Shown here in pieces: positions 4,128-38,075 of a stretch of 39,502 nt of DNA; positions within the stretch are counted from its first letter, which is position 1, and every line of letters starts with the position of its first letter. Under the pieces are notes generated by a model. The model did not search any database and was not told the origin of the DNA. It worked only from the letters and a program-made list of their open reading frames with translations. The DNA is from an uncultured Desulfobacterales bacterium (lineage in GTDB: Bacteria; Desulfobacterota; Dissulfuribacteria; Dissulfuribacterales; QOAL01). The stretch spans positions 1-39,502 of the forward strand of contig CAYXYO010000207.1 of assembly GCA_964469365.1 (NCBI GenBank). The letters run 5' to 3'. A program made the position numbers and the translations under genes.

Positions 4128-7070
4128 ATGGTTAGGAAAAAGTATTTTGACATTGTCAAGGTCAGTCTGACAGGGCGGATCGTGCTTATAGCCCTTCTGG
4201 CATCAGGGGCGGGTACGTGCCTGTTCGGTTGTCTCCATTATATGCTCGTATCTGACACATTGAGGGCCGAGGCATTGAAGCATATTGAAGCCAGTGTAAG
4301 GTTGTATGCCGTGGAGCTTGAGGATGATCTGGACACCCTTGTTAAAGATACGGCCTCGGCAGCCTGGATGTTATCCGAGTTTTCAGATAATGCGTCCGCT
4401 TTATCATTCCCTTATGACAATGGTGGAAGGTTAAGGAAGGCTCTTGAACATTTGATATGGTCAAACAGCAACTATATATCGCTTCATTGTGTAAGGCAGG
4501 GGAAGAAAGGTCTTGAGACGTTGTATGTTATTTCCCGGGATAAGAATGTGGAAGTCTCAGAGCAGTTTCTCAAGATGTCGGCAGGTTTTATCTACAGCAA
4601 CATGGCGTCTGTTCATGATGGCGAGGTGGTGGTCGGCAGTATCGGTCTCAGGGAGATAAAAGGCGTTACCATGCCAGTAACAGAGGCGATGACTTCCTTG
4701 CGTGCAGGTTCAATGGAGAAGATATTTGTTGGTATTACAATGGGAATAGATTGCAGTACGATCCCTGTTTGCAGCATATCAGGAGATAGCATGCAATTCA
4801 TAGTGTCAGATGGTCGTGATGTCAGGTTGATGACCTGGAGTGGCGCTCCCATTCAAACTCCTGGGCAGGCAGATGGTAATTCCCGTAAGATTGAGGCGTT
4901 TCTCAGGGATGGTGACAGGGAGGGAATAACTTTTTATTTCCCGGAACAGGTAGTCTCTTTCAGAAAGGTTTATTCCGGGACGGGGAACAAGAATCTTATG
5001 GTTGTGGGCGCAAGGTCGTCCTTGCGTATCCTGCAAAAAAAGCTTGGCGATTTAAGGCTCAAGGAGGTGTTATATATTGTCTTTACCCTGTGTATGGTAT
5101 GTGTAACTGTATTTGTGGCCACAAGGTTTTCGCTTCGTCCAGTCAAAAAACTTACAGAAGCGGCGAGACGTATAAGTGAGGGAGATGAAAGCGTTACCAT
5201 AGAGGCAGGGGGTAGTGATGAGATCGCCAGACTTGCTGAGGCCATAAAGATCATGCTTCAGCACATGATACGCACCAGAAGCCAGTACCATTTTCTTGTG
5301 GAATCTCTTGATGATCAGGTGAAGGCCAGGACCAGGGAACTGGAGGCCATGAACCTTGCGCTTGAAAAGGAGATAGAAGAGAAACGAAATGCCGAAAGAT
5401 CTCTTTTCCTTGCAGGCAAGATTGTGGAAAATACCCGTGAAGCTGTAATGATAACAGACGCAAACGGGATAATTCTGGAGGTGAACAAGGCCTTTTCAAG
5501 GATTACTGGCTACAGTCCATATGAAGTGATTGGCAGAAAACCTGATATCCTCAAGTCAGGAAAACAGAACAGGGAGTTTTACACCCGGCTATGGAAGAAG
5601 CTGAGAAGCACGGGACACTGGCAGGGTGAGATGTGGAACAGACGGAAAAACGGCGAACTGTATCCTGTCTGGAATTCCATCAGCGTTGTTTATGGCGACG
5701 AAGGCATGATAAGTAATTTTGTTTCCATTCATTCGGATATCACTGTGCTCAAGGAGACTGAAAGACGGCTTGAGCAGCTTGCCCATTATGATCCCTTGAC
5801 CGGTCTGCCAAACCGTACACTTTTACAGGACAGACTGAAGCAGTTGATACTGTTGTCTGAAAGGAATAATAAAAAGACAGCGGTTATTGTCCTTGATCTT
5901 GACGGGTTCAAAGAGATCAATGATACCATGGGACATGACAAGGGAGACGAAATCCTGATACAGGTTGCCGCCAGGTTGAAGGAGTGCGTCAGAAAGAGTG
6001 ATACCGTTGCCAGGCTCGGAGGCGATGAATTTGTGGTGGTGTTACCCAACATAAATTCCTTTGATAACCTGATATGGGTTGCCCAGAATATCATTGATGC
6101 CATGAATGATCCTTTTTATCTTGAAGACAAGAAGTTCCTTGTAACAGCCAGCCTGGGAATAGCTCTTTATCCAGATGATGGTAAAAGCGGCCAGACGGTT
6201 ATGAAAAATGCCGATGCCGCCATGTATGCCTCCAAGGAGAGTGGCAAGAATACTTTCCGGTTTTTCAAGGAAAGCATGCTTGACAAATCCATTTACAAGC
6301 TTTTTCGGGCAAGTGAGATCAGGGAAGCAATAGAACGTGGTGAATTTATTCTGCATTTTCAGCCGAGGTTCTGGACTGGCACGAGAAAGATACATAGCGC
6401 AGAGGCCCTTGTGCGGTGGGAACATCCGGAAAGAGGATTGATCTATCCCGGTGACTTTATTCCTCTGGCAGAGGAGACAGGGTTGATTACCAGGATAGAC
6501 AGATGGGTGTTGCAGGAGGCTTGCAGTAAAAACAGGGAACTGCAGGAAGCAACGGGAAGAAGTCTAGTCTTTTCCATTAACCTTTCAGCCAAGGATTTTG
6601 CCCAGCATAATCTCATTGATATTATAAATCGTTGTATTATGGATTCGGGTATTGCTCCTGCCTTGCTGGAGGTGGAAATCACCGAGACAGTGATTATGGA
6701 GGATGTGCAGAGGTCCATAAAAACCCTTGAGCGTCTCAAGGAAACAGGCGTTACAATATCTGTGGATGACTTTGGAACCGGTTACTCCTCACTCAGTTAC
6801 CTGAAGATGTTTCCCATAGATCTCCTCAAGATAGACAGATCCTTTGTGACAGGTCTGCCTGATGACCGTAATGATATGGCTGTTGTAGAGGCAATTATAG
6901 CCATGGGGCACGCTTTGGGCATGTCTGTTCTCGCAGAAGGGGTGGAAACTTCTGAACAGTTTGATTTTCTTGCCCGGAAAGGCTGCGATTTTATGCAGGG
7001 CTATTACTTTGCCAGGCCGGTTCCCTTTGATGTGCTGGAAAAGATGCTGTTGGCTGAATACAGCGCGTGA
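4128..7070 (+). CDS. Membrane sensor protein: extracytoplasmic domain, HAMP, PAS, GGDEF and EAL (c-di-GMP turnover)
   Basis: Two TM segments flank a domain of about 280 aa. HAMP: RPVKKLTEAARRISEGD...DEIARLAEAIKIM. PAS: ITDANGIILEVNKAFSRITGYSPYEVIG. The GGDEF site is intact (RLGGDEFVV) with RKSD in the RxxD I-site position. EAL motifs are intact (EALVRWEHP, DDFGTGYSSLSYL, KIDRSF, EGVET). Confidence 0.9.
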   Translation: MVRKKYFDIVKVSLTGRIVLIALLASGAGTCLFGCLHYMLVSDTLRAEALKHIEASVRLYAVELEDDLDTLVKDTASAAWMLSEFSDNASALSFPYDNGGRLRKALEHLIWSNSNYISLHCVRQGKKGLETLYVISRDKNVEVSEQFLKMSAGFIYSNMASVHDGEVVVGSIGLREIKGVTMPVTEAMTSLRAGSMEKIFVGITMGIDCSTIPVCSISGDSMQFIVSDGRDVRLMTWSGAPIQTPGQADGNSRKIEAFLRDGDREGITFYFPEQVVSFRKVYSGTGNKNLMVVGARSSLRILQKKLGDLRLKEVLYIVFTLCMVCVTVFVATRFSLRPVKKLTEAARRISEGDESVTIEAGGSDEIARLAEAIKIMLQHMIRTRSQYHFLVESLDDQVKARTRELEAMNLALEKEIEEKRNAERSLFLAGKIVENTREAVMITDANGIILEVNKAFSRITGYSPYEVIGRKPDILKSGKQNREFYTRLWKKLRSTGHWQGEMWNRRKNGELYPVWNSISVVYGDEGMISNFVSIHSDITVLKETERRLEQLAHYDPLTGLPNRTLLQDRLKQLILLSERNNKKTAVIVLDLDGFKEINDTMGHDKGDEILIQVAARLKECVRKSDTVARLGGDEFVVVLPNINSFDNLIWVAQNIIDAMNDPFYLEDKKFLVTASLGIALYPDDGKSGQTVMKNADAAMYASKESGKNTFRFFKESMLDKSIYKLFRASEIREAIERGEFILHFQPRFWTGTRKIHSAEALVRWEHPERGLIYPGDFIPLAEETGLITRIDRWVLQEACSKNRELQEATGRSLVFSINLSAKDFAQHNLIDIINRCIMDSGIAPALLEVEITETVIMEDVQRSIKTLERLKETGVTISVDDFGTGYSSLSYLKMFPIDLLKIDRSFVTGLPDDRNDMAVVEAIIAMGHALGMSVLAEGVETSEQFDFLARKGCDFMQGYYFARPVPFDVLEKMLLAEYSA

Positions 7071-9027: not shown

Positions 9028-12000
9028 CTATCCGCCAATGGCGAAGACCTCGGGGTTGATGTCAGGAAAAACAGGATTTGCAGCCTCAAGCTCCTTCAGT
9101 CTGCATAGCGCGGTTTCATTGTGGCCGCCGTGCCAGAACAGGGCCGCGGCAATCCAGAAGCGTTCAAGGTCGCCGAGGTAAAACTCCTTCATACGGTCAA
9201 CAAAGTGACCGTTTGATATCACAAAAGGTATGTCGCTGTTCATGGCCTGGAGCACCTCCCTTGCTGCCTGCGCCCCTGCCCTGACGGCAAATTCGTCGTT
9301 CCTGCGGCTGTTCCTTATCTCTGTGGCAATGGCCACCATCTCCCGTATTGCCTCGTGGGTATGTCGGTACATCCATGAAACGGAACCGTACATCCACTTG
9401 TCAAAGGTGCCTTTGTCTCCCCAGGACGAGGGGTTGAGAAAGACTTCCTGGTTCCTGCCGTACCTCCTGAGGTATGCCCCCGGGGTTATCAGTTCTGTTT
9501 CATTTTGATTATAATAGAGCTTTTTCAACAGGAAATAGAGAAAATCCACCCCTTCATACCAGTGATGCCCAAAAAGTTCAGCGTCGTACATGGCCACCAC
9601 AACCGGTTTTTTCCAGAACCAGTTCCGTATGTGCTGAAACCTGAAGTTACGGGCCTCCATAAAGTGCTGGGCGTGCAGGGCTGCCTTTTCCATGGCCCGT
9701 TCCCTTACGTAAGCCTCCTTGAAATTGTTGTCCCTTGAGGTAATCCGGTTGTACTTCAGTGGTCCGCCCTTCATGTGAAATTCCAGGTAGTCAGGGTCTC
9801 CCGGATAGCCTTCGTCTCCGCTCCATACCTGTTTGCCGGTTTCAGGATCGCGGGCAAAGGCGGCCACGTCGCTTCCCTTGATGAATACCGGGGCGTGCAC
9901 CCCGAACTGCACATGGGCGTCGGCGTCAAGCACGCCATGGGTTTCAGTGAAAAAATACCTGAGCCCTGCTGCCTCAACATGCCTTTCAATGCCGGGAGTG
10001 TAGGCGCATTCAGGAAGCCATATCCCCAGGGGCATGCGGCCAAAGGTGTCGTTGTAATCATTGACCGCCGTTTCGATCTGGGCCCTTACGGATTCAGGAT
10101 AGGCGGTATAAAAGGGTAGAAAGGCATGGGTTGCCCCGCATGTGCTTATTTCAAGGCAGCCTGTCTCCTGGAACCTGGCAAAGGCCCTGGTGAGGTCACA
10201 GCCGTAACGTATAAAACAGTTCTTTGTCTCCAGAAACCTTTCAAGATGCATCCTCGCGGTGTCGTGATAATGACGCGCCTCCCGCCATGTCCTGTCAACC
10301 TCTGCCCTGGCGAGGCTTATATGGGCGTCCATGTACTTCAGAAATTCGTCCTGGAGCATGGGAGACCGCATCATGTTGGAAAGGGTTGGAGAAATGTCCA
10401 TGGAGAGCCGGAAATCCACCCCCTCATCCACAAGTTTTTCAAACATCCTTATGAGGGGCACATATGTTTCGCGGACTGCCTCGTGAAACCATTCCGGCGG
10501 GTATCCCATTGGCTGCCATACGCCGGAAGTGCCGTAGGAAACCCGTTCCCTGATAAAGGGCAGGTGCGCGTGCAGGTGAATGGCAAGCAGGCCCGATGAG
10601 TGAAGGGCCGAGTCCATGACCGACCTTACGGGAGCAAAGACAGGGTGTTCCCCTGAAAATGCCACGTCCCTGTAAACAGGGGGGTTGTGGCCATGACCCC
10701 TCCTTATTGTCTGTATGGCGTTTGATGGGGCTGTAAGCTCCTTCACGCTGCCGTCGCCTGCCGTGGCAATGAGCTGTACGCGATACACGCGGTCAGGTTC
10801 AAGGGCAATATAATAACTGTCTGTTATGCCCAGGTGAACTTCAACATCCCTGTCAGGGTGGTGATGCAGGCTGCCGCCAAACTCGTGAAATACCCTGATG
10901 TGGGTTTTTACCTCGCCATGAGCTTCTGCAAAGTCCCCAAGCCCTTTGTCAAGCCTTGCCCTGTCAAGATGCCAGTATGCAAATGCCCTTGCCTCGTCAA
11001 CCGGAAGAAGCGTTATGTGGTCTTCCCTTGCGGGAACGACGGCAGGGGAGGATTCAATTATCGGGATGCCTTCCGGATAGTTGCCGTTTTCATCTGCCGG
11101 ATACGCAGCAAGCACTGCAAAAAGGGCGTTATTGTCATCAAGGGAGTCAAAAAACCAGTCGGATACGCCGGGCGGCAGGGGGGCTGAAACCCTGAGAAGG
11201 GTCCTGCCCCTGGCGTCAAGCCTGTAAAGATTTACTTTCAGTTCAACATCCTGCCATGAAATGGAATGGGCCGCCTCGAACCTGTCGGCTATCTCCCGCC
11301 ACTCTTCAGGGGAGATGTCCCACCATGCCCTGGCCTGCACGGTATCTTCCTCCCAAACCTCCCGTTTAAGCTCCATAAAGGGCGAGCGGCCGGGGATGTC
11401 CAGCGTCTCTGAAAATAGTACCCTTTTTATTTCAGGAGATGGGAACTCAATGGTGAAAATTGTGGCAAGCGGGAAGGGGTTATCTTTAAGTGGCGCCCCA
11501 TTCCCCCTGTCTATAGCCCCCTTTTCCATTATTACCAGGGAAATCTCCGTTACAAAACCTGTTACCAGGGCATGATTTGAGAAGCCGACATCAATCCACT
11601 CCCTGTCTGATCTCTCGGAACCGCCGGTCCTGCCGTCGCGTCTGACGCGCAGCCACAGCTCCACGTCACTTTCCCAGTCAAGGCGGGTGGCGCTCTCCAC
11701 ATCATGCCGTATCCGGTCCCACTCCACGTCATGCCATGACAGATGGTGCCTCCCTTCATTTTCAGACACAAAGGAGATTCGGGGAGTCATGCCGTCAGGA
11801 GCTGAAATGTTGAGCCTGAACTTCTCTTTTGCCGCGAGAATCACCCTTGCCCCCTTTTCAATGTCAACCGGACATTCCACCTGATTCAGGAAAGAACACT
11901 TTCTTTCAATTGCGGGAGTGTCAGAACCTTCCGGAATAATTTGTAAAACAAGGTCTTCCTCAAGGGGGTTCAGGCCGGCTACGGTCTCGTCATTCCAGAG

Positions 12001-12099
12001 AATGGTCCACTGCCCCCTGGCAATGGATATTGAAACCCCTGGAAATGAGCGGACAGGGCATGTTTTTGATGACTGTATAACGGGTTTGTGTGTTTTCAT
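9028..12099 (-). CDS. GH57-family alpha-glucan enzyme (branching-enzyme-like) fused to a ~500-aa N-terminal extension of DUF4912-like repeats
   Basis: The C-terminal half carries GH57 branching-enzyme-type blocks: LAIHLHAHLPFIRE, YVPLIRMFEKL, SMDISPTLSNM, LGIWLPECAY, FFTETHG, VAMYDAELFGHHWYEG. The N-terminal half carries repeated W-rich modules (AFAYWHLD..., ARAWWDISPEEW..., SWHDVEWD...). I prefer the ATG at 12099 over the TTG at 12126. Confidence 0.8.
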   Translation of the reverse strand: MKTHKPVIQSSKTCPVRSFPGVSISIARGQWTILWNDETVAGLNPLEEDLVLQIIPEGSDTPAIERKCSFLNQVECPVDIEKGARVILAAKEKFRLNISAPDGMTPRISFVSENEGRHHLSWHDVEWDRIRHDVESATRLDWESDVELWLRVRRDGRTGGSERSDREWIDVGFSNHALVTGFVTEISLVIMEKGAIDRGNGAPLKDNPFPLATIFTIEFPSPEIKRVLFSETLDIPGRSPFMELKREVWEEDTVQARAWWDISPEEWREIADRFEAAHSISWQDVELKVNLYRLDARGRTLLRVSAPLPPGVSDWFFDSLDDNNALFAVLAAYPADENGNYPEGIPIIESSPAVVPAREDHITLLPVDEARAFAYWHLDRARLDKGLGDFAEAHGEVKTHIRVFHEFGGSLHHHPDRDVEVHLGITDSYYIALEPDRVYRVQLIATAGDGSVKELTAPSNAIQTIRRGHGHNPPVYRDVAFSGEHPVFAPVRSVMDSALHSSGLLAIHLHAHLPFIRERVSYGTSGVWQPMGYPPEWFHEAVRETYVPLIRMFEKLVDEGVDFRLSMDISPTLSNMMRSPMLQDEFLKYMDAHISLARAEVDRTWREARHYHDTARMHLERFLETKNCFIRYGCDLTRAFARFQETGCLEISTCGATHAFLPFYTAYPESVRAQIETAVNDYNDTFGRMPLGIWLPECAYTPGIERHVEAAGLRYFFTETHGVLDADAHVQFGVHAPVFIKGSDVAAFARDPETGKQVWSGDEGYPGDPDYLEFHMKGGPLKYNRITSRDNNFKEAYVRERAMEKAALHAQHFMEARNFRFQHIRNWFWKKPVVVAMYDAELFGHHWYEGVDFLYFLLKKLYYNQNETELITPGAYLRRYGRNQEVFLNPSSWGDKGTFDKWMYGSVSWMYRHTHEAIREMVAIATEIRNSRRNDEFAVRAGAQAAREVLQAMNSDIPFVISNGHFVDRMKEFYLGDLERFWIAAALFWHGGHNETALCRLKELEAANPVFPDINPEVFAIGG

Positions 12100-12115
12100 G
12101 GATATATACCTGGTA

Positions 12116-12274
12116 GTGCCTTGCAAGATTGTCTTTCTGGCACATGGATGCGTTGTTGGCGAAATGAAAAATGTTTACATGGTGTTGCGGCGTTTTCGAA
12201 CTTGTTGCTTCCCGCACTGAACCGGAAATCCGGTTTCATAAATATTCTGTTAAAGGATACATGTTGCAAGGAGA
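12116..12274 (+). repeat. Intergenic imperfect-palindrome repeat, family copy A
   Basis: GTGCCTTGCAAGATTGTCTTTCTGG...GAAATGAAAAAT...GTTGCGGCGTTTTCGAACTTGTTGCTTCCCGCACTGAACCGGAAATCCGGTTTCA aligns along its length with copy B. A distal TTGCAAGGAGAG may be the 3' arm. It lies between the DUF190 stop and the GH57 start, both on the minus strand. Confidence 0.55.
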
Positions 12275-23608: not shown

Positions 23609-23685
23609 ATGCCTTGATTGTCCATTGTGTTGAGAGTTTTTGATATGAATCAGAGGTGGCCATAAAAAGCCTCAGGAGGAAAACC

Positions 23686-25818
23686 ATGTCTCTTTTCAGA
23701 AACAGATTTGTGTATCTGTCTGTAATTACTCTTGTTTGTGTTTGCTTTTCAAGTGCGTCAGCGGAAATAGATTATGATATCTGGCAGGCAATGCAACAGG
23801 CAGATCAATATGAACAGGCCGGTAAACTGGCCGATGCCCTGCCTTTGTGGCTGACTATTATAGATTATTTTGAAAAGGGGCAGGATGAATCTTCATGGAC
23901 CAATGCCGCCATGTATCATAAAAAGGCAGGGAAATATTATGACAGCATAAAGGATTATGATAAGGCAATATATCATTATGAAAAAGAAAATGAATTCTGG
24001 GAAAAACTGGGCAAGGACTGGGGGACTGAAGACATGCTCAGGGCAGATCAGATACGCACTGTCTTTGACATATATGTGGAAACAGCACCTGACAATAACA
24101 GGAAACTCGCAAAATACGAGCCCAGGGCCGGATATTATAATGGCATATACTGTGAGCATGATTCCAATATAGGTCAGAATCTTTATCTGACCCGCAGTGT
24201 TTACGGCCATCACACCATGTTTCTGTTTTATGAAGAGTGGGGCAATATGTATGACTTTGATTACGGCGTCAAATCGCCCTTTGACATAAAGATGGCAGAG
24301 CGCATAAAGAACGAAGGTGCAGGTTTTCAGCAGGCCCTGAATTCTTCGGTCAGTGGTCTGGAAATCATTAAAGAGGATGCCTGGATAACAGCATGGGCAA
24401 AGGCAGCCAGGGAAAGTGGAGTTGAGATTTTTTTGCGATTTCTTCCCGAAATGAATGGAGACTGGGCTGCATGGGCCGGAGACCCTGTAAAATATAAGGA
24501 CAAATTCCGTTTAGTACATGATATAATGGAACGACTTGCTCCCAATGTGGTAATGGTGTGGTGCCCAAATGATGTGCCTGTGGAGCTTCATGGACATCGC
24601 ATTGAGGATTATTATCCTGGAGATGAATATGTTGACTGGGTTGGCGTAAATTTTTATGTGGACTATTACAACAGCGGCGATGCCAGCAAGCCGGACAACA
24701 GGCTGCAAAATCCACTGGATCACCTGAAATATGTCTATAACATGTTCCATGAACGTAAACCCATCATGATATGTGAAACTGGGGTAAGTCATTACTCCAT
24801 TACAACTGGAGAAGATCTTACGGAATGGGCGGTGGCAAATCTGGAAAAACTTTATTCAATGCTGCCTGTTGTATATCCGGATGTAAAGGCCATAACCTAT
24901 TTCAGCATGGATCAGGGCAGTCCTTTTTACAATAATCATAACACGATATGGAATAATTACCGGCTTTCTGATAACAAACGGATGGCTGATACATACCGTG
25001 AACTTATGAAATCCGCCAGTATTGTTCACAAGATTGGCGGAAGCGCAGGATTTACATATAAAAAGATCCGTCAGTCAGAGTTGCCCCTGTATAAAAAAAT
25101 AATTTTTGACATCAAAATAGCTGATTACAAGATAAGCAAGGTGGAAATATTTATTGACGATAACCTGGTAAAGGTCGATTCCAGCCTGCCTTTTTCCCTT
25201 GAATATAATCTGGCATTCGCTGATAAACTGAAGGTCAAGGTATATGGATCAGATGGACTTTTCGCCATGGAAAGAGAGATTGTCCTGAACAGTAAAGACA
25301 CCAGTCTTAATGGCGCATATTTGTCTGGCTTTGGTACGGGCATGGAGTTTTGCAAAAGCGGCATCAGTACTTGTGACCATTTGTCCCAGACTCTTGCGGT
25401 TCCCAATATGGAGACAGGAAGATGTCAATATGTTGATAGCCAAGGCAATATCCAGATACCATGTATGTGGTTAGGAAACGGTCTGTTTGGTATTACTCTC
25501 GGTTTAACAAGCACGTCGCCTGATATAATCGCTGATCTTGCAGGGGCATCAGTGAAAGATGCCGGTAGCAACGTGTGGTTCTGGGGATATCAGCAAGGGG
25601 TTGAGGCCTGCCTGGATGATATAAAGGGTTGTAGTGATTCTGAAATCAAGGACGCCTTTATAAATGTATGCGCGGAATTCGACCTCTCAACAAATCGTCT
25701 GGTAATGCCGTGCATGTCTGGCGCTGGTTCCATCTATAATACAGTAATGGAACTGTTTAGCATTGACCCGGTACAGTTGCGGCTTGTCTCAGCAGAAGAA
25801 GTAAAAAATAGCAGATAA
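23686..25818 (+). CDS. Secreted multidomain protein: TPR-like N-terminus, GH26-like glycoside hydrolase domain, Ig-like module and duplicated 4-Cys C-terminal module
   Basis: Signal peptide MSLFRNRFVYLSVITLVCVCFSSASA. GH26-like blocks are FLRFLPEMNGDWAAWAG (acid/base Glu), VWCPN, YYPGDEYVDWVGVNFY and PIMICETGV (nucleophile Glu). I prefer the ATG at 23686, preceded by AGGAGG, over the ORF-track start at 23656. Confidence 0.75.
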   Translation: MSLFRNRFVYLSVITLVCVCFSSASAEIDYDIWQAMQQADQYEQAGKLADALPLWLTIIDYFEKGQDESSWTNAAMYHKKAGKYYDSIKDYDKAIYHYEKENEFWEKLGKDWGTEDMLRADQIRTVFDIYVETAPDNNRKLAKYEPRAGYYNGIYCEHDSNIGQNLYLTRSVYGHHTMFLFYEEWGNMYDFDYGVKSPFDIKMAERIKNEGAGFQQALNSSVSGLEIIKEDAWITAWAKAARESGVEIFLRFLPEMNGDWAAWAGDPVKYKDKFRLVHDIMERLAPNVVMVWCPNDVPVELHGHRIEDYYPGDEYVDWVGVNFYVDYYNSGDASKPDNRLQNPLDHLKYVYNMFHERKPIMICETGVSHYSITTGEDLTEWAVANLEKLYSMLPVVYPDVKAITYFSMDQGSPFYNNHNTIWNNYRLSDNKRMADTYRELMKSASIVHKIGGSAGFTYKKIRQSELPLYKKIIFDIKIADYKISKVEIFIDDNLVKVDSSLPFSLEYNLAFADKLKVKVYGSDGLFAMEREIVLNSKDTSLNGAYLSGFGTGMEFCKSGISTCDHLSQTLAVPNMETGRCQYVDSQGNIQIPCMWLGNGLFGITLGLTSTSPDIIADLAGASVKDAGSNVWFWGYQQGVEACLDDIKGCSDSEIKDAFINVCAEFDLSTNRLVMPCMSGAGSIYNTVMELFSIDPVQLRLVSAEEVKNSR

Positions 25819-32722: not shown

Positions 32723-33095
32723 TCCTGTCTGTGCTTACAATCTGTTGAACCTGTTATATATTCAAAAAAGGCAAGGGGAACAATTATTCTGACTTTCTAT
32801 CAATAATTTTCTGACAGTTTTTTTTGCAGAGACGAGATTGCAGTATCCGACATAAAAAAGCGTAAAGGATATTCCAATGCTATAAAAAGTAAAATCAGTA
32901 AGTTGCTTTTAATTGCCAAATGTTTTAATTTTAGCATCTATTTTGCAAGGAAGTAGTTTTGTATTTCTTTAATAAACTTTACAGGAAAAACAATTCAGTT
33001 TTTTTAGGTGATTACCGATTTGTTTTTTAGATACGCTTTATAAATTAATTGCTTGATTAACAACTTCTGGCTTCAAAGTATTCGGGAGGGATATT

Positions 33096-34343
33096 ATGTC
33101 ACATAAATTCTGGAAACCTGTTCTGGCAACCACAGCCATTATTTTCCTGCTTTCATCATGGGGATGCGGGCAGAAAATCAAGAGTTCGGTCAAAACAAAC
33201 GACACGCAGCATGGTCTTGTTGCGTCCGAAGCCCAGATCGTTATGCTGCCCTTTGCAGATTACACTGCGGGCAAAAGACCTGACGATTCCCTTAGGCGTC
33301 AGGTCAAAATACAGAGTGCTTTGGCCCATCATCTTGCGTCTGCCGGCTACTATGTGCCCATGGAAGAGGATACCGTCCAGTATCTTGTTGATCTTGGCGT
33401 GATCTCAATTATAGAGTCGCCTGAAATGAGTTCCGCGCGGTCAAGAAGGACTCTTTCCAGAGAGATGGGAGGGGGTTGGTCAGACAGCATGATGGAAGAA
33501 ATCAACAGGGTTCTTGTTGAAAATGAACTTAACAATGCCTCTGGTGAACATCTGAAATTTAATAAGGTCGGCCTTGATAAAGGCACTATCAAACAGATTG
33601 GGCGTTATTTTAGCGCGGATTATATACTCAGGGGACGTATCGTGGAATATGATCTCAGGGAAGGTCAGGATATCAATCCGGTGCAGCAGGGTATTTTGCC
33701 GTTTTTCTTTGACAGTTCTTCCGGCCTTGTTTTTGGCTTTGCAAAATCAGAAAGTTATGATGTATGGCAGGATGTCGCCATTGGTGGAGCAATCGGGCTT
33801 GCCGCAGGTTCCACAGCAAATACGCCCTTCAATTCACCTTCAAAGTCATCTGCCGTGGTCGGTTCCCATCCAAGGGATATGCGGGTCGTGACAGACACCA
33901 GCGGAGGTTACAGCAGCAGCGCAGGGCTTAATGCGGCTACCTGGGGAGCGGTTGGCGCAGGCGTCGCCTATCTGGCATCAGAGGGAGGATATGTGCCAAA
34001 GGCTGTTGTGCAGTTGAGCGTTGCACTGCAGGATGCCAAAACCGGTCGTGTTGTGTGGGCCAACCGGGTGGAAAAGGAAGTTGAACCCAAAAGCGTATGG
34101 TCAGACCCGACAGACCGTAAAAATATTGACTTGGCAGTGGAGGAGGCAACAAAGGATATTGCAAAGGATCTGATAGCCGCCCTTAACTATGTTGAGACTG
34201 ACGGTTATGCTGGCCAGCCACAGACAACACAGATTTCCGATAACAGTGCAGTAAAATCCACCATGAATAACAGCGCCCCTGTCAGGGAAGACGATGATAT
34301 AATAATTATTGAAGAGTCTGAACCTGAAAATATGGGATCATGA
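33096..34343 (+). CDS. Putative outer-membrane lipoprotein with CsgG/PelC/LpoB-like core and a ~115-aa Gly/Ala/Ser-rich insertion
   Basis: Signal peptide ending LLSSWGC (an atypical lipobox, Cys24). The core resembles the CsgG-type fold pattern: IVMLPFADYT..., SADYILRGRIVEYDL, then a Gly-rich insert, then AVVQLSVALQDAKTGRVVWAN. Acidic tail REDDDIIIIEESEPE. Shine-Dalgarno GGGAGGG. The CDS is secure but the family call is inference. Confidence 0.65.
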   Translation: MSHKFWKPVLATTAIIFLLSSWGCGQKIKSSVKTNDTQHGLVASEAQIVMLPFADYTAGKRPDDSLRRQVKIQSALAHHLASAGYYVPMEEDTVQYLVDLGVISIIESPEMSSARSRRTLSREMGGGWSDSMMEEINRVLVENELNNASGEHLKFNKVGLDKGTIKQIGRYFSADYILRGRIVEYDLREGQDINPVQQGILPFFFDSSSGLVFGFAKSESYDVWQDVAIGGAIGLAAGSTANTPFNSPSKSSAVVGSHPRDMRVVTDTSGGYSSSAGLNAATWGAVGAGVAYLASEGGYVPKAVVQLSVALQDAKTGRVVWANRVEKEVEPKSVWSDPTDRKNIDLAVEEATKDIAKDLIAALNYVETDGYAGQPQTTQISDNSAVKSTMNNSAPVREDDDIIIIEESEPENMGS

Positions 34344-34396
34344 TGTCGGCTTGGGGTCAACAATTTCTAACATGCAACAAACACTGGTGAAGTCTT

Positions 34397-36043
34397 ATGA
34401 ACAAGAGAAATAGTCAAGTTACTGCATGCTCCCTGTTTGCGTTAATCTTCTTAATGTTGTTGATTATATACGCAAACAATGTGTCGGCAGAATGTGCTTC
34501 AACATATTATTGCAGACAAAACATATATGTAAAAGAACCTCTGTCCGGCGTGTTGGACTTTGGCACGGTTAAAAAGGGAACAAAGATATCCTATAATATG
34601 ATAATTGGCTCTGATTTTTGGGAATGTTGTATTTTTCAGCCTGTTCCCATCAGTCTGTTCGAAGAACTTGAACCTAAAAGCAGGGTCTTCAGTGTAACCG
34701 GTCTCCAGACAGGTGACACTTTTGCACCACCTACTGCCACTGCAACGAATTATAAAGTTTTGACCGTTACCCTGGATCTGACCAATGAGGATCCTTCCAC
34801 AACCGAGTCATATATGACTCAATATGAGCTGCTTCTTGGGCAACAGTCTGCGAATTTAGTCTATGACACGCCACCACCACCTAAGCCTATAATTATTACC
34901 GTAAAGGCTGTTGGAGAAAAGGCGGCAGGCCCGGCAATAACCTGTGACCCCAGGATAGATTTTGGGCTGGCTGAAATAGGCACACAGGTTAACAGGGAGC
35001 TTACCTGTTACAACACAGGGGATGTGGATGGTAAAATTGAGGCTGTTGCGCCAGGAGTTGGAGATCTCAGGCCATTTACCACTGATATGCAGGGCAATAG
35101 CACCATACCAAGAGATTACAAACAGGTCTTTAATGTAAGTTTCATTCCTGCCTCCACTCAGCAGGAAACCCGTATACTGGAAATTACCTTTGATGATGGA
35201 AGTTCACAGAAGGTCGAACTTACAGGGCAGGGCAAGCCCAAGTGCAGTGAAAACCATCTGTTTCCGTACGATCTGTATGCTGATCTGCCTGAGGCTTTCA
35301 CCCTTCGCGCAGGACAGGGGCAGGTTTTCATAGTGGATATAGCCGGCCCGGCCCTGTTTCTGGCGGAAAACAATGTAAAAAAACCTGGTTCACCTTACAG
35401 GTTTGATACTGTGCTTGCCAGGGATGCAAAGGAGGCCGCCTTCGGTCAGCCTGCCAGCGATGGCCATTATATCTATGCCATTGTACTTGACCAGAAGAAT
35501 ACTTCCAGATACATGAATTCCCAGTTCATGGTTATGGATTTGAATTATACCAATCTCTTTGATCAGGTTATGATGGGTACAATGGTGGTGCCCACAGGAT
35601 GGGACACTGGAAATGTGCCTGCGATCTCGGTTTCTGTAAACAGGAAGAAAGCATTGTTCGTTGAAAGTGCGTCTTCTTTGAAACGGTCTGATAACAGCCT
35701 GACAATGGAGCTTGCAACCAACTGGGCATCAGCGCCGTCTGCCAGTATGACAGGAGACTATTACCTGATACTTGTAAATCAGGACATGTCAAAGACATAC
35801 TGTTATGATTTTGAAAAAGAACAGTTCAATTTCTGTTCCCCTGTTACTCCGGCAATAAGAGGTATTACTCCGGGATTTGTTGACAATGGCAACAGGCCGT
35901 TCCATATCCCCTTTACGGAAAATGGCGTCTGGCGAGTCTATTCCGGTATCATTACCGATGACGGCAATGTATTTTATGATCAGGCAGTCATAGTGACAGG
36001 TCAGGCTGCCAATTTCCAGACGAACTACAGATGCAATGAATAG
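34397..36043 (+). CDS. Secreted protein with two HYDIN/ASH-like (choice-of-anchor-D-like) Ig-fold modules and an unassigned C-terminal half
   Basis: Signal peptide ...IIYANNVSA. Two modules open with LDFGTVKKGTKISY and IDFGLAEIGTQVNRELTCYNTGDVDGKIE, and the second closes with FNVSFIPAS...LEITFDDGSSQKVELTGQG. The last ~260 aa have no motif I recognise. Confidence 0.7.
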   Translation: MNKRNSQVTACSLFALIFLMLLIIYANNVSAECASTYYCRQNIYVKEPLSGVLDFGTVKKGTKISYNMIIGSDFWECCIFQPVPISLFEELEPKSRVFSVTGLQTGDTFAPPTATATNYKVLTVTLDLTNEDPSTTESYMTQYELLLGQQSANLVYDTPPPPKPIIITVKAVGEKAAGPAITCDPRIDFGLAEIGTQVNRELTCYNTGDVDGKIEAVAPGVGDLRPFTTDMQGNSTIPRDYKQVFNVSFIPASTQQETRILEITFDDGSSQKVELTGQGKPKCSENHLFPYDLYADLPEAFTLRAGQGQVFIVDIAGPALFLAENNVKKPGSPYRFDTVLARDAKEAAFGQPASDGHYIYAIVLDQKNTSRYMNSQFMVMDLNYTNLFDQVMMGTMVVPTGWDTGNVPAISVSVNRKKALFVESASSLKRSDNSLTMELATNWASAPSASMTGDYYLILVNQDMSKTYCYDFEKEQFNFCSPVTPAIRGITPGFVDNGNRPFHIPFTENGVWRVYSGIITDDGNVFYDQAVIVTGQAANFQTNYRCNE

Positions 36044-36057
36044 TTGAGGAGGCTAAC

Positions 36058-37647
36058 ATGCGAAAAAGCATAATATTATCGAGTCTGTTACTGCTGCTGA
36101 CCTTCCCGTCCATTTCCTTGGCGGCAAGGTTGTGGGTTGACCCCGGCGCACTCTATTTCCAGTACCAGAAAAATGGGGCATCAGTCAACGCAACAGTGAC
36201 CGTATCCAATCTGGACATGGATATGAACGGCACCTTTGCCTGGACTGCCAGCACGGATGCCCAGTGGCTCTCTCTGGAGAACCCTGGCATGAGCCATTCA
36301 GGCCCTGGCAGTTTCAAGGTTTCTCTTGATACCGCAGTGCTGGATACCATGCAGTCCGGCCCCTATACCGCATCAATTGCCATTATGTCAGACATGGGAA
36401 GCAAGTTTTTTGTGCCGGTCTCCCTTAACTATATGCCTTCCACCGAGGTGCAGACACTGAACCTGCCTACTTCAGCGTGGCTGGATACAGTTATGGAGGT
36501 GCCTGCCAGTGTCCTGAATCAGGCCAAACTTTATGTGCTGATGGAGCACCCCACACTGCTGCCCGGCAAGACATATGCCTACAGATGTTCCGCTGCCGGA
36601 AACGGTTCGGAGTCAAACTGTTCCTTTGACCTTTATAGTCAGAATGGACACCTTATGCCAAATGCCGCGGATCTTTATTACGATTCCGACGCCATGCTTA
36701 ACCTTATGACCAATACCGTTGAGATACCCTTTGGAGGGTTCAGACTGGCCGGTCTGGATGGGCAGATAAGGGTGCATTGCATGGCGGGCAGCCCGGCTCC
36801 AGGCTCAAGGTATGGCATGTACAGCCTCCTGGATCTTACGATTAACATTATGCCTCTGCAGGGGCAGTGGGATGTAATTGACAATTTCTTCGGTTCTGAA
36901 TATGCATATGCTGCCAACCTTTATGAAACTTTTGGGAATATTGACGGCCTTTGGGATGGTATAGCAGTGCCATACTTTGATTACATCAATCCTTCCAACT
37001 CAATGCCTTCAGACCCGAAGATCATAGGCTCAAATGTATATGTGAAGAATTCAAGCCTGATGACCGGTTATGAACTCAAATTTTCCAGATACAACGATGT
37101 GCTGAAACAGAACGAGGATTACTGGTACCAGATAACTGATTTAACGGATTTTGATGATGGCATTGTTTCAGGCATATGGAGAATGAAGGAATCCAGCCAT
37201 ACTGACTGGAGCGTACCTCAAAAATTTTCAGCAACTCGTACTGACTGGGAGTATGTCATACCCTTTAACAGGGTCACTTTCAGGGATTCCTATGTAACTA
37301 CCGCATATGTTTCAAGCAGTACGGTTACCAAATATCCGGTTGCCTTTATTGTTGACACAGGCGCGGAAATGGTTCTTATGGATAAGGCTGACATGCAATA
37401 TATCCTGCATCCTGAGGAAATAGATGCCAAATGTGTCGAATCTACAGGTATAGGAGCAGGCGGAAACCTGATTGTTATTACCAAGTGTCCCGGAATTACA
37501 TTGCAATTAACCGACAAGATAAAGCTGGAAAATATGGACATATATTTTACAGATAATCAGACTCCGGGTCTTCTTGGCATGGATTTCCTGAAACATTTTA
37601 ATATACGCTTCAGAAGCAGTGACCACGCAATGATAATTTCACCCTGA
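36058..37647 (+). CDS. Secreted protein: BACON/Ig-like N-terminal module, unassigned beta-rich centre and C-terminal retropepsin-like aspartic protease domain
   Basis: Signal peptide ...TFPSISLA. The BACON-like pattern is FAWTASTDAQWLSLENPGMSHSGPGSFKVSL...GPYTASIAI. The C-terminus VAFIVDTGAEMVLM...GIGAGGN...TPGLLGMDFLKHFNIRF is the clan AA retropepsin signature (DTGA plus LGMDFL). Strong Shine-Dalgarno GAGGAGG. Confidence 0.8.
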   Translation: MRKSIILSSLLLLLTFPSISLAARLWVDPGALYFQYQKNGASVNATVTVSNLDMDMNGTFAWTASTDAQWLSLENPGMSHSGPGSFKVSLDTAVLDTMQSGPYTASIAIMSDMGSKFFVPVSLNYMPSTEVQTLNLPTSAWLDTVMEVPASVLNQAKLYVLMEHPTLLPGKTYAYRCSAAGNGSESNCSFDLYSQNGHLMPNAADLYYDSDAMLNLMTNTVEIPFGGFRLAGLDGQIRVHCMAGSPAPGSRYGMYSLLDLTINIMPLQGQWDVIDNFFGSEYAYAANLYETFGNIDGLWDGIAVPYFDYINPSNSMPSDPKIIGSNVYVKNSSLMTGYELKFSRYNDVLKQNEDYWYQITDLTDFDDGIVSGIWRMKESSHTDWSVPQKFSATRTDWEYVIPFNRVTFRDSYVTTAYVSSSTVTKYPVAFIVDTGAEMVLMDKADMQYILHPEEIDAKCVESTGIGAGGNLIVITKCPGITLQLTDKIKLENMDIYFTDNQTPGLLGMDFLKHFNIRFRSSDHAMIISP

Positions 37648-37675
37648 CGGGTGGCAATAGGATTGCATTCAACCA

Positions 37676-37704
37676 GGGGAAGTAAATATTGCTTCCCCTT
37701 TTTT
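37676..37704 (+). terminator. Rho-independent terminator closing the three-gene operon
   Basis: GGGGAAG / CTTCCCC 7-bp stem with a 9-nt loop (TAAATATTG), followed by TTTTTT. It begins 29 nt after the stop at 37647. Confidence 0.75.
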
Positions 37705-37715
37705 ATTGTCCTGAT

Positions 37716-38075
37716 ATGCATGAATTTACATTGGTACAGAACCTCGTAGGTCAGCTTGAACATCTGGCCGCAATGCATAATGCAGAACATATATGCAAGG
37801 TAAAGGTGGAAATAGGTTCCCGTGCGGGGGTCGTTGTTGATTCCTTTCGCTTTGCCTTTGAAGTGATTTCTCAAGAAGTGTCATTGACAAAAGGTAGTGT
37901 CCTGGAAATAATAGAAACTCTTCCTCAGAACAAGTGTCTTGAATGCCACATGATATTTGATTCAGGAAGTGAACGTCTGGATTCCTTTACTGTCACATGT
38001 CCATTTTGTGACAGTAAACATAACATGTTATATGGAGGAGATGAGATACGTCTTTTGCAGGTGGAAATGGAATGA
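37716..38075 (+). CDS. hypA: Hydrogenase nickel-insertion metallochaperone HypA
   Basis: The N-terminus MHEFTLVQNLV carries the MHE nickel site. The zinc site has two CxxC motifs (CLEC, CPFC). Size and layout are typical. I prefer the ATG at 37716 over the ORF-track start at 37689. Confidence 0.88.
   Translation: MHEFTLVQNLVGQLEHLAAMHNAEHICKVKVEIGSRAGVVVDSFRFAFEVISQEVSLTKGSVLEIIETLPQNKCLECHMIFDSGSERLDSFTVTCPFCDSKHNMLYGGDEIRLLQVEME

Follow-up and report, generated by a model that had tools for sequence, protein, structure and literature searches.

A Thermodesulfobacteriota gene pair linking a CsgG/PelC-type lipoprotein with an exported Ig and retropepsin protein

A stretch of 39,502 nucleotides from an uncultured Desulfobacterales bacterium (contig CAYXYO010000207.1; this whole stretch is called the window below) carries three adjacent genes that a first-pass annotation read as an envelope operon, combining a CsgG/PelC-like lipoprotein with two secreted Ig-fold proteins, one of which bears a retropepsin. 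This raises the question of whether the three genes constitute a conserved unit and, if so, what such a lipoprotein might do next to an exported protease.

The locus and its conserved gene pair

The three open reading frames are co-directional on the forward strand, at exactly the coordinates of that annotation, and are separated by 53 and 14 nt. They are bracketed by an AT-rich leader and a strong intrinsic terminator, both of which were recovered:

32723..33095, + strand: leader, 373 bp, 30% GC, from the stop of the GGDEF gene to the start of gene 1
33096..34343, + strand: gene 1, 415 aa, candidate outer-membrane lipoprotein with a CsgG/PelC/TraT/GNA1162-type fold
34397..36043, + strand: gene 2, 548 aa, exported accessory carrying a single Ig domain of HYDIN/VesB type
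36058..37647, + strand: gene 3, 529 aa, exported Ig / orphan-domain / retropepsin protein
37675..37704, + strand: intrinsic terminator, 11-bp stem (37675-37699, 3-nt loop) followed by TTTTT

N-terminal signal sequences, claimed for all three products, are discernible by eye in each of them, and the Pfam domain calls were reproduced (LpoB, 5.6e-5; CsgG, 1.2e-4; HYDIN/VesB Ig, 3.9e-9; Asp_protease_2, 1.2e-7). Each gene had also been assigned its own Shine-Dalgarno sequence, which is true of gene 1 (GGGAGGG) and gene 3 (GAGGAGG), but gene 2 has only a weak GGTGA. The operon had been described as more AT-rich than its surroundings; its composition does not bear this out, as the GC content of genes 1, 2 and 3 (0.487, 0.451 and 0.467) compares with 0.488 for the whole window, and is even lower in the adjacent hypA (0.408) and in the GGDEF gene upstream (0.437).

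The suggested co-conservation of all three genes had to be abandoned: gene 2-type proteins are present at only 7 of the 39 informative distinct loci, and the core of the module is formed by genes 1 and 3. A protein with the gene 3-type central domain adjoins gene 1 at 34 of these 39 loci, in 29 cases with a retropepsin, and the two genes are spaced -29 to +111 nt apart while gene 1 identity spans 42-67% (leaving out L026, whose -125 nt is an ORF-start artefact). The pair-bearing loci come from different species-level genomes and their flanking genes vary. As the pair recurs at so many of the informative loci its adjacency is far from chance, and we are confident that a conserved gene 1/gene 3 pair exists. 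At five loci the central domain occurs without the protease, with an unrelated ~120-aa domain in its place at four of them, and hence the pairing does not depend on proteolysis; a hidden degenerate retropepsin was sought in these partners and is not there. An apparent gene 1/gene 3 fusion ORF of 994 aa (L045) is an artefact: its two parts are joined by consecutive Ns (XXXX), and the contig has a coverage of ~1x.

The module is best explained as a lineage-restricted envelope unit of Thermodesulfobacteriota with a two-gene core. It is tightly conserved in a group of anaerobic sulfate reducers and sulfur disproportionators; among them is Seep-SRB2, which lives in syntrophy with methane-oxidising archaea, and cell-surface and matrix proteins are thought to be important in the formation of such consortia. 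With the exception of the gene 3 central domain all its parts are of recognisable fold class, and the annotation's remark that their combination is undescribed agrees with our literature searches, which found no published account of it.

The gene 1 lipoprotein

Gene 1 had been attributed to the ring-lipoprotein fold class, and this attribution is backed both by Pfam profiles and by Foldseek searches with an AlphaFold2 model. The protein has the lipobox cysteine as well as the shared α/β core fold of the class, together with several features of its own:

33165..33167, + strand: codon of lipobox cysteine 24, invariant in 52 homologues
33666..33995, + strand: family-specific insertion, aa 191-300, starting directly after the RGRIVEY strand
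34176..34322, + strand: linker, aa 361-409, poorly conserved (consensus fraction 0.22 across the family)
34323..34340, + strand: C-terminal motif P-E-N-M-G-S (family consensus P-E-N-W-G-S)

The lipobox is canonical in 42 of the 52 homologues, the S-W-G-C box of the window being atypical. LpoB is matched by 38 and CsgG by 22 of the 52 family members; the window's protein attains 23.5 bits against a cut-off of 22.3 for LpoB (PF13036), across just 39 of 147 positions, and 21.9 bits against 20.8 for CsgG (PF03783), a match to positions 65-102 of 210 in which no single stretch passes. It is not LpoB at the equivalog level (NCBIfam TIGR02722, 14.3 bits versus a cut-off of 110.55) and falls outside the TraT family (PF05818, E = 0.13, 12.4 bits versus 31). 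The monomer model (pLDDT 77.7, pTM 0.62) retrieves GNA1162, FlgT, the CsgG pre-pore, PelC and decameric TraT with E-values of 1e-4 to 1e-3, a probability of 1.00 and TM-scores, normalised to the target, of 0.42-0.69. Because the modelling was of monomers, ring formation by gene 1 is argued from the analogy of fold. Searched against PDB sequences, the profile of gene 1 hit nothing but helices of designed engrailed homeodomains (E = 1e-3), which were rejected as an artefact of helical composition.

The insertion of ~110 aa is conserved to the same degree as the core (consensus fraction 0.66-0.67) and, according to model and alignment, comprises Gly/Ala-rich, nearly uncharged, Gly-zipper-like helices and a variable β-hairpin. 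These helices have a mean hydropathy of +0.4 to +1.4 and 1-3 charged residues, and the hydrophobic moment of the two long ones is low (0.19 and 0.21); by comparison, the core helices of gene 1 are amphipathic. On its own the insertion matches no glycine-zipper or other family in Pfam at E<=10. The preceding RGRIVEY aligns with EGSIIGYES just before TM1 of CsgG, a weak alignment of 5% probability which hints that the insertion may sit at the approximate position of the CsgG membrane hairpin. At the other end of the protein, low model confidence is confined to aa 371-415 (mean pLDDT <50), and aa 361-369 end a predicted helix (H340-369). This stretch is read as a long disordered tether that leads to the conserved C-terminal motif. 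A C-terminus of the form [GD][ST] co-occurs with the gene 3-type partner (contingency table [[29,5],[1,4]]; Fisher p = 0.007 over 39 loci, kinship ignored); however, the tail was lost and the partner kept at least 4 times (L011, L026, L032, L046) and L050 has the tail without a partner, so that the link, when counted as events, is weak.

CsgG, the nonameric channel of curli (type VIII) secretion, builds a 36-stranded barrel with two transmembrane β-hairpins. Gene 1 resembles it in being a lipoprotein with a common α/β core (Foldseek E = 1.6e-4) and a marginal Pfam match, but the CsgG hairpin is a β-element of ~20 aa, unlike the predicted helical insertion, and CsgG lacks both the C-terminal tether and its motif. 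In the 16 loci with gene or Pfam annotation csgE, csgF and the curlin genes are absent from the vicinity of gene 1; the scan of the remaining loci covered the gene 1, 2 and 3 profiles. TraT, another member of the gene 1 fold class (Foldseek E = 1.2e-3), is a ring-forming decameric lipoprotein that is held in the outer membrane by inserted amphipathic helices and has no pore (PMC11733297); thus membrane-anchoring helical insertions in this fold do not require a pore. In contrast to gene 1, which is not plasmid-borne, TraT is a plasmid surface-exclusion lipoprotein with neither a protease nor an Ig partner; its ring faces outwards. The best fold matches are PelC, GNA1162, FlgT and LpoB (4hrv, E = 1e-4; 3w1e; 9h80; 5t0z), all of which lack both the insertion of 110 aa and the C-terminal motif, and the gene 1 loci differ from the settings of PelC, FlgT and LpoB in that no pel operon, flagellar context or PBP partner accompanies them. 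As a working analogy for gene 1 we prefer PelC, a dodecamer whose ring accompanies a distinct outer-membrane channel.

Distant homologues of gene 1 occur in pilus and secretin gene clusters. Three contigs display the order pilM-N-O-P, TPR-STN, secretin, gene 1-like; elsewhere the gene 1-like gene comes after secretin / T2SS-E / T2SS-F, or after T2SS-E / T2SS-F followed by genes for a histidine kinase and a σ54 response regulator. The homologues with a secretin or T2SS context occupy deep branches of the family tree. Given that the deepest branches lie inside pilMNOPQ or T2SS-E/F/secretin clusters, a gene 1 ring is more likely to operate next to a secretin-type channel than to be that channel, and these contexts suggest that the pilus and T2SS secretin clusters of Desulfobacterota include a lipoprotein component that has gone unrecognised. 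In directly following the secretin gene of pilMNOPQ- or T2SS-type clusters these homologues recall the pilotins (PilF/Tgl, PulS); to our knowledge, however, known pilotins are TPR or small helical proteins, none with a CsgG fold. The gene 1 of the window departs from pilotins in adjoining no secretin gene, and no gene for a secretin or type IV filament is found within the window.

The exported partners

Proteins of the gene 3 type are 529-1076 aa long and combine one to three Ig modules with an orphan β domain of ~280 aa and, usually, a C-terminal retropepsin. The domains of genes 2 and 3 in the window are:

34949-35233, + strand: gene 2 Ig domain of HYDIN/VesB type, aa 185-279 (Pfam PF22544, 37.1 bits versus 25.5)
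36127..36438, + strand: Ig module at the gene 3 N-terminus, aa 24-127, a divergent BACON_2-like form
36439..37272, + strand: gene 3 central domain, aa 128-405, without recognisable relatives, at 34 of 39 loci
37297..37644, + strand: gene 3 retropepsin domain, aa 414-529, with D433-T-G-A at 37354-37365 and L-L-G-M-D-F-L at aa 505-511

The retropepsin that had been recognised on gene 3 is real: the D-T-G-A is intact and the scores exceed the Pfam gathering cut-offs (PF13650, 32.8 bits versus 24.3; PF13975, 32.7 versus 28.2). V-D-T-G-A occupies aa 432-436 and is followed downstream by a hydrophobic-hydrophobic-Gly motif, and the protein ends immediately after this domain. In an alignment of 9 members D433, G435, A436 and L505-L506-G507-M508 are invariant, with one member having D-A-G-A. 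The domain has weak PDB sequence matches to FIV protease and Ddi1 and scores below the cut-off of TIGR02281, the DTGA subfamily of clan AA (22.7 bits versus 57.95). Comparable secreted or membrane-associated retropepsins are RloA of Pseudomonas, which has been grouped with RimB (PMC12239564), and APRc of Rickettsia (PMC10414592). Each combines a signal peptide with a single-lobe clan AA D-T-G fold and is an obligate dimer, and their roles concern the envelope, biofilms or surface proteins. Gene 3 shares the signal peptide and the clan AA D-T-G, and from established retropepsin biochemistry it would likewise be active as a homodimer; but RloA and APRc are small stand-alone enzymes, whereas the retropepsin of gene 3 terminates a 529-1076-aa Ig and orphan-domain protein that is paired with a lipoprotein.

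Of the two Ig types named in the first-pass annotation, the HYDIN/VesB-type domain of gene 2 stands, while BACON_2 (PF19190) on the gene 3 N-terminus reaches only E = 0.087 (13.2 bits versus a cut-off of 25); matches to it are stronger in gene 3 homologues (L051, 9.4e-18; precomputed matches in P0116, P0121 and P0122). Searches with this Ig module draw in thousands of repeat-only matches. The 35-member profile of the central domain (A4) has zero matches in PDB or Pfam, and this orphan domain and the C-terminal P-E-N-W-G-S motif of gene 1 are now defined and open to structural study. The AlphaFold2 model of gene 3 is poor (pLDDT 63.6), and its Foldseek matches (hydin, cadherins) were set aside as signifying just tandem β-sandwiches.

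Gene 2-type proteins range in length from 548 to 1364 aa. The window's protein scores below the cut-off for NCBIfam choice_anch_D (33.1 bits versus 45), has no match among PDB sequences and is poorly conserved, with just 2 clusters among 5.8 billion proteins. Between its unassigned C-terminal half and the gene 3 central domain no kinship was detected, since hhalign aligned the signal peptides only. Within the module gene 2 is an optional Ig-repeat accessory and a candidate substrate.

Possible modes of action and regulation

We tentatively propose that the gene 1 lipoprotein would oligomerise into an outer-membrane ring anchored by its lipid and by the insertion, and that this ring would dock the gene 3 protein, possibly via the C-terminal tethers of gene 1. 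Crowding on such a multivalent ring could pair the retropepsin domains, which as obligate homodimers would then become able to cut, and the cleavage might act on Ig proteins of the surface, for instance the gene 2 product, by processing or releasing them, or serve the self-processing of gene 3. This mechanism by itself is plausible though well short of an even chance, and the conserved pair and the mechanism taken jointly make a reading that comes only a little short of one. The module would thereby offer a testable example of envelope control over a bacterial retropepsin that is active only as a dimer.

An unlikely alternative, in line with the first-pass annotation, is that gene 1 forms a CsgG-like oligomeric pore through which the gene 2 and gene 3 proteins exit in a type VIII-like fashion. 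The CsgG-like fold, the conserved insertion near TM1 in the weak alignment, the lack of any other outer-membrane component encoded by the operon and the presence of Ig types typical of surface proteins (HYDIN/VesB, choice-of-anchor D, BACON) would all suit it, but AlphaFold2 renders the insertion helical instead of as a β-hairpin, TraT has helical insertions on the same fold and no pore, and CsgE- or CsgF-like partners are missing. Moreover, CsgG passes a small unfolded subunit in curli secretion, whereas the cargoes here would be multi-domain proteins of 500-1360 aa, and the secretins adjoining the distant homologues are already a channel.

We likewise doubt that genes 1 and 3 form a periplasmic lipoprotein-adaptor and protease pair akin to NlpI-Prc or LbcA-CtpA, in which gene 1 would both tether and regulate the gene 3 protease beneath the outer membrane for the degradation of envelope or cell-wall proteins. 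NlpI and LbcA are TPR proteins with a fold unlike that of gene 1. The best Pfam match of gene 1, LpoB, is a regulator lipoprotein facing the periplasm, as do the PelC, CsgG and GNA1162 rings, and the overlapping or closely spaced genes point to a stoichiometric complex; secreted retropepsins of Pseudomonas, too, affect envelope stress tolerance and cell shape (PMC12239564). However, a soluble adaptor leaves the conserved apolar insertion unexplained, the partner is kept without its protease at five loci, and the multi-Ig architecture and giant accessory Ig proteins resemble surface rather than periplasmic proteins.

A bolder extension of the ring mechanism, and quite an unlikely one, is that the gene 1 family represents a new class of ring lipoproteins serving type IV filament secretins, which in the branch of Dissulfuribacterales, Seep-SRB2 and relatives became a platform dedicated to exporting and activating an Ig-retropepsin exoprotein that processes itself. 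If true, this would amount to a new cargo-specific route of outer-membrane secretion or display with proximity-activated proteolysis.

The module had also been linked to c-di-GMP, and we regard it as improbable that the upstream diguanylate cyclase controls it as part of a matrix or biofilm system. In the window the operon directly follows a GGDEF gene, with an orthologous one upstream in L026 and L036, no terminator was found in the leader, and the T2SS-E ATPases beside the distant homologues in L056 and L057 carry MshEN, a c-di-GMP receptor domain. Against this, these 3 are the only ones of about 40 loci with a GGDEF neighbour; L003, the closest relative, has the same dapB-dapA synteny and no GGDEF gene; and an Rfam scan of the leader (E<=1) found no family and no c-di-GMP riboswitch, the window's clade sharing a σ54-type motif instead. 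Finally, that these are unrelated hypothetical genes placed together by accident might be argued from the poor conservation of gene 2, but the recurrence of the gene 1/gene 3 adjacency amid differing flanks in different species-level genomes allows this to be practically dismissed.

The σ54-type motif is represented in the window by a variant element:

32932..32947, + strand: σ54-type -24/-12 variant, TAGCAT-N5-TTTGCA with AG for GG, 164 nt upstream of gene 1

In this element the critical GG is missing, the window encodes no σ54 activator, and the leaders of L004, L007, L056 and L057 do not contain the motif. At a similar distance, TGGCA-N6-TTGC[TA] occurs in 18 of 44 related leaders, as compared to 0 on the opposite strand and 0.46 expected from shuffles, which suggests that transcription in the window's clade is probably σ54-dependent. 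All 17 other matching leaders hold GG-N10-GC, 15 of them as TGGCA, with AGGCAT in L003 and TGGCTT in L001.

Operon layout and the conserved gene pair

The three ORFs occupy exactly the coordinates assigned by the first-pass annotation, with spacers of 53 nt between genes 1 and 2 and 14 nt between genes 2 and 3, and are preceded by a 373-bp leader of 30% GC. Shine-Dalgarno sequences lie ahead of gene 1 (GGGAGGG) and gene 3 (GAGGAGG); the site before gene 2, GGTGA, is weak.

33096-34343, forward strand: gene 1, 415 aa
34397-36043, forward strand: gene 2, 548 aa
36058-37647, forward strand: gene 3, 529 aa
37675-37704, forward strand: intrinsic terminator (11-bp stem, T5 tail) closing the operon before hypA, whose start is probably ATG at 37716

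The AT-richness earlier attributed to the operon is not borne out: the three genes have GC contents of 0.487, 0.451 and 0.467, where the window as a whole has 0.488, hypA 0.408 and the upstream GGDEF gene 0.437. A better candidate for foreign DNA is the window's lowest-GC part at 23-26 kb (GC 0.41-0.44), which contains a gene (23656-25818, forward strand) whose 720-aa product matches GH26 only in part. Elsewhere, 9028-12126 on the reverse strand codes for a 1032-aa GH57/branching-enzyme C-terminal protein with a DUF4912 N-terminal extension.

Homologous loci were collected by exact protein look-ups (8) and from species-representative genomes (49), and every ORF in them was scanned with HMMs from the window's families. 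All are labelled as Thermodesulfobacteriota-type, including Seep-SRB2 and Dissulfuribacterales. One of the carriers, Dissulfuribacter thermophilus (L004), is in culture.

Gene 3-type partner (with the central domain) adjoining gene 1: 34 of 39 informative distinct loci
Such partner with a retropepsin domain: 29 of these 34
Such partner without a retropepsin domain: 5 of these 34
Gene 2-type protein adjoining gene 1: 7 of 39
Gene 1 without a detected partner: 5 of 39

From these frequencies it follows that the conserved unit is gene 1 plus gene 3, with gene 2 as an accessory; the proposed co-conservation thus stands for the pair and falls for the three-gene unit. Support is good both for the module being real and for its make-up. 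The gap from gene 1 to the next module gene ranges from -29 to +111 nt (excluding L026, where -125 is an ORF-start artefact), and gene order is not fixed, being 1-3-2 in L001. An apparent gene 1/gene 3 fusion ORF (L045, 3-2987) proved to be artefactual, produced by a stretch of N across a scaffold gap. Two gene 1 copies with P-E-x-W-G-S tails occur in a single MAG, JAMOUE01 (L009 and L054), and the module can therefore be duplicated within one genome.

Among the five partners that lack the protease, the one in L008 stops after the central domain and the other four have an unrelated domain of about 120 aa in its place. These four belong to one sub-clade in which the gene 3-type partner has lost its retropepsin (L026 12632-14059; L029 12393-13895; L035 12418-13902; L036 12661-14088); their C-terminal domain contains cysteines and has no match in Pfam, and a HYDIN-Ig protein of 1050-1200 aa is always also present.

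Domain architecture of the encoded proteins

In the gene 3 product a signal peptide is followed by a BACON-like Ig module of divergent sequence, a central domain of about 280 aa and a C-terminal retropepsin. The aspartic protease proposed from the DTG motif is confirmed as a true clan AA retropepsin: D433-x-G-A is invariant, eight of the nine aligned members keep an intact D-T-G-A, and the second motif, L-L-G-M-x-F-L, is likewise invariant. Neither PDB nor Pfam yielded a relative of the central domain to a 35-member profile. When 1.84 billion representatives were searched exhaustively with a gene 3 profile, no more than 49 proteins reached E <= 1e-30, and among those listed about 16 span the central and retropepsin regions; the weaker matches, numbering thousands, cover the Ig module only. 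Gene 2 combines a signal peptide with one HYDIN/VesB-type Ig domain (Pfam, 3.9e-9); the rest of the protein has no assignment, a search against PDB sequences gave no match, and only two gene 2 clusters occur among 5.8 billion proteins.

Pfam matches of gene 1 itself are marginal and confined to one short stretch (LpoB, 5.6e-5; CsgG, 1.2e-4), and across the family LpoB is recovered in 38 and CsgG in 22 of 52 homologues. An AlphaFold2 model built on the 52-homologue alignment (pLDDT 77.7, pTM 0.62) matches PDB structures of GNA1162, FlgT, the CsgG pre-pore, PelC and decameric TraT at E-values of 1e-4 to 1e-3. In the predicted structure the assignment to this fold class therefore holds, as the first-pass annotation had supposed for CsgG/PelC/LpoB. 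By sequence, gene 1 is no clear member of any of these families: its fold is of the class that also holds CsgG, PelC, TraT, GNA1162 and LpoB, but their distinguishing sequence and context features are absent or marginal. The lipobox cysteine is invariant in the family alignment; 42 of the 52 members have a canonical lipobox, and that of the window is an atypical S-W-G-C.

An insertion of about 110 aa (aa 191-300), as conserved as the core in the family alignment, starts directly after the strand RGRIVEY. For a CsgG-like channel speaks an hhalign pairing of this strand with CsgG EGSIIGYES, just ahead of the TM1 hairpin, though the pairing is weak (E = 0.007, probability 5%). Against it, in TraT the same fold bears inserted membrane-anchoring helices without a pore (PMC11733297). 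The helices of the gene 1 insertion are Gly/Ala-rich with almost no charge, and neither of the two long helices is amphipathic.

34176-34322, forward strand: gene 1 linker after the core, poorly conserved, low-confidence (disordered) from about aa 371

The extreme C-terminus is again conserved, with the consensus P-E-N-W-G-S (P-E-N-M-G-S in the window). Acidic linkers precede this motif, that of the window being REDDDIIIIEESEPENMGS. Since RloA-type bacterial retropepsins cut Glu-rich peptides (PMC12239564), the tail might serve as a substrate or pseudosubstrate. A C-terminal [GD][ST] tail is associated with partner presence (table [[29,5],[1,4]], Fisher p = 0.007, phylogeny ignored); on the tree the tail arises together with the partner-bearing clade and is lost at least 4 times while the partner is kept, making the association a lead and not a result.

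Origin of gene 1 and a possible mechanism

Distant gene 1 homologues (29-42% identity) are without the C-terminal tail, and those in pilM-N-O-P clusters (29-34%) also lack the variable hairpin. Their contexts are as follows:

L006 1-8005, L061 1-8023, L062 and the contig of homologue P0111: last in a pilM-pilN-pilO-pilP / TPR-AMIN-STN / secretin cluster
L057 2973-8945: after secretin / T2SS-E (MshEN) / T2SS-F
L056 2076-9152: after T2SS-E / T2SS-F / histidine kinase / σ54 response regulator
L008: beside a minor-pilin cluster
L063: with a 1538-aa HYDIN-Ig protein

PilQ is seemingly split over two genes in the L006, L061/L062 and P0111 clusters. A rough NJ tree with midpoint rooting places these homologues on the deep branches and groups the gene 3-partnered loci in a single derived clade with a few losses. 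The secretin- and pilus-linked position of the deep branches suggests that the ancestral family member was a lipoprotein associated with a secretin, and the homologues in pilus clusters may represent an unrecognised lipoprotein of this kind. Outer-membrane transport, if any, would more plausibly use a secretin route than the gene 1 ring itself.

We favour a mechanism in which gene 1 would form a ring anchored in the outer membrane that docks the exported Ig/orphan-domain protein (gene 3), perhaps via flexible C-terminal tethers. As retropepsins are obligate dimers (PMC12239564), the ring might gather retropepsin domains at a higher local concentration, allowing them to dimerise and cut. Less probable rivals are a CsgG-like channel and a periplasmic adaptor-protease pair akin to NlpI-Prc; the latter sits less readily with the partners that have dispensed with the retropepsin. 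Gene 3 differs in architecture from RloA (PMC12239564) and APRc, and has a partner. No account of the gene 1/gene 3 pairing turned up in literature searches, nor does a Seep-SRB2 comparative genomics paper mention it. The new elements here are the partner and the insertion of a candidate ring lipoprotein from a known fold class; the chance that the module represents a novel system for export or activation is modest.

Upstream signals

A further rival, the proposed c-di-GMP-driven matrix module, draws on the GGDEF gene upstream of the operon and is rather unlikely, as that gene precedes the module in no loci but the window, L026 and L036, is absent from the closest relative, L003, despite the same YHS-HPPK-aminotransferase-FAA-dapB-dapA synteny, and the leader matches no Rfam family. 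The window has a second c-di-GMP gene, for a 980-aa HAMP-PAS-GGDEF-EAL protein (4128-7070, forward strand).

A σ54-type -24/-12 motif (TGGCA-N6-TTGC[TA], one mismatch allowed) occurs on the coding strand of 18 of 44 leaders and never on the opposite strand; shuffles give 0.46 expected and a maximum of 3. It lies 134-193 nt upstream of gene 1 in 16 of the 18 (exceptions: L001, -66; L011, -355), its position being conserved and its flanks not (L009-L023 and other loci).

32932-32947, forward strand: σ54-type element of the window, TAGCAT-N5-TTTGCA, with AG replacing GG

Because the window's copy has lost the GG, σ54 dependence, as read from these motifs, is likely for the clade and uncertain for the window's genome. 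Directly upstream of the gene 1 homologue in L056 lies the gene for a σ54-dependent response regulator.
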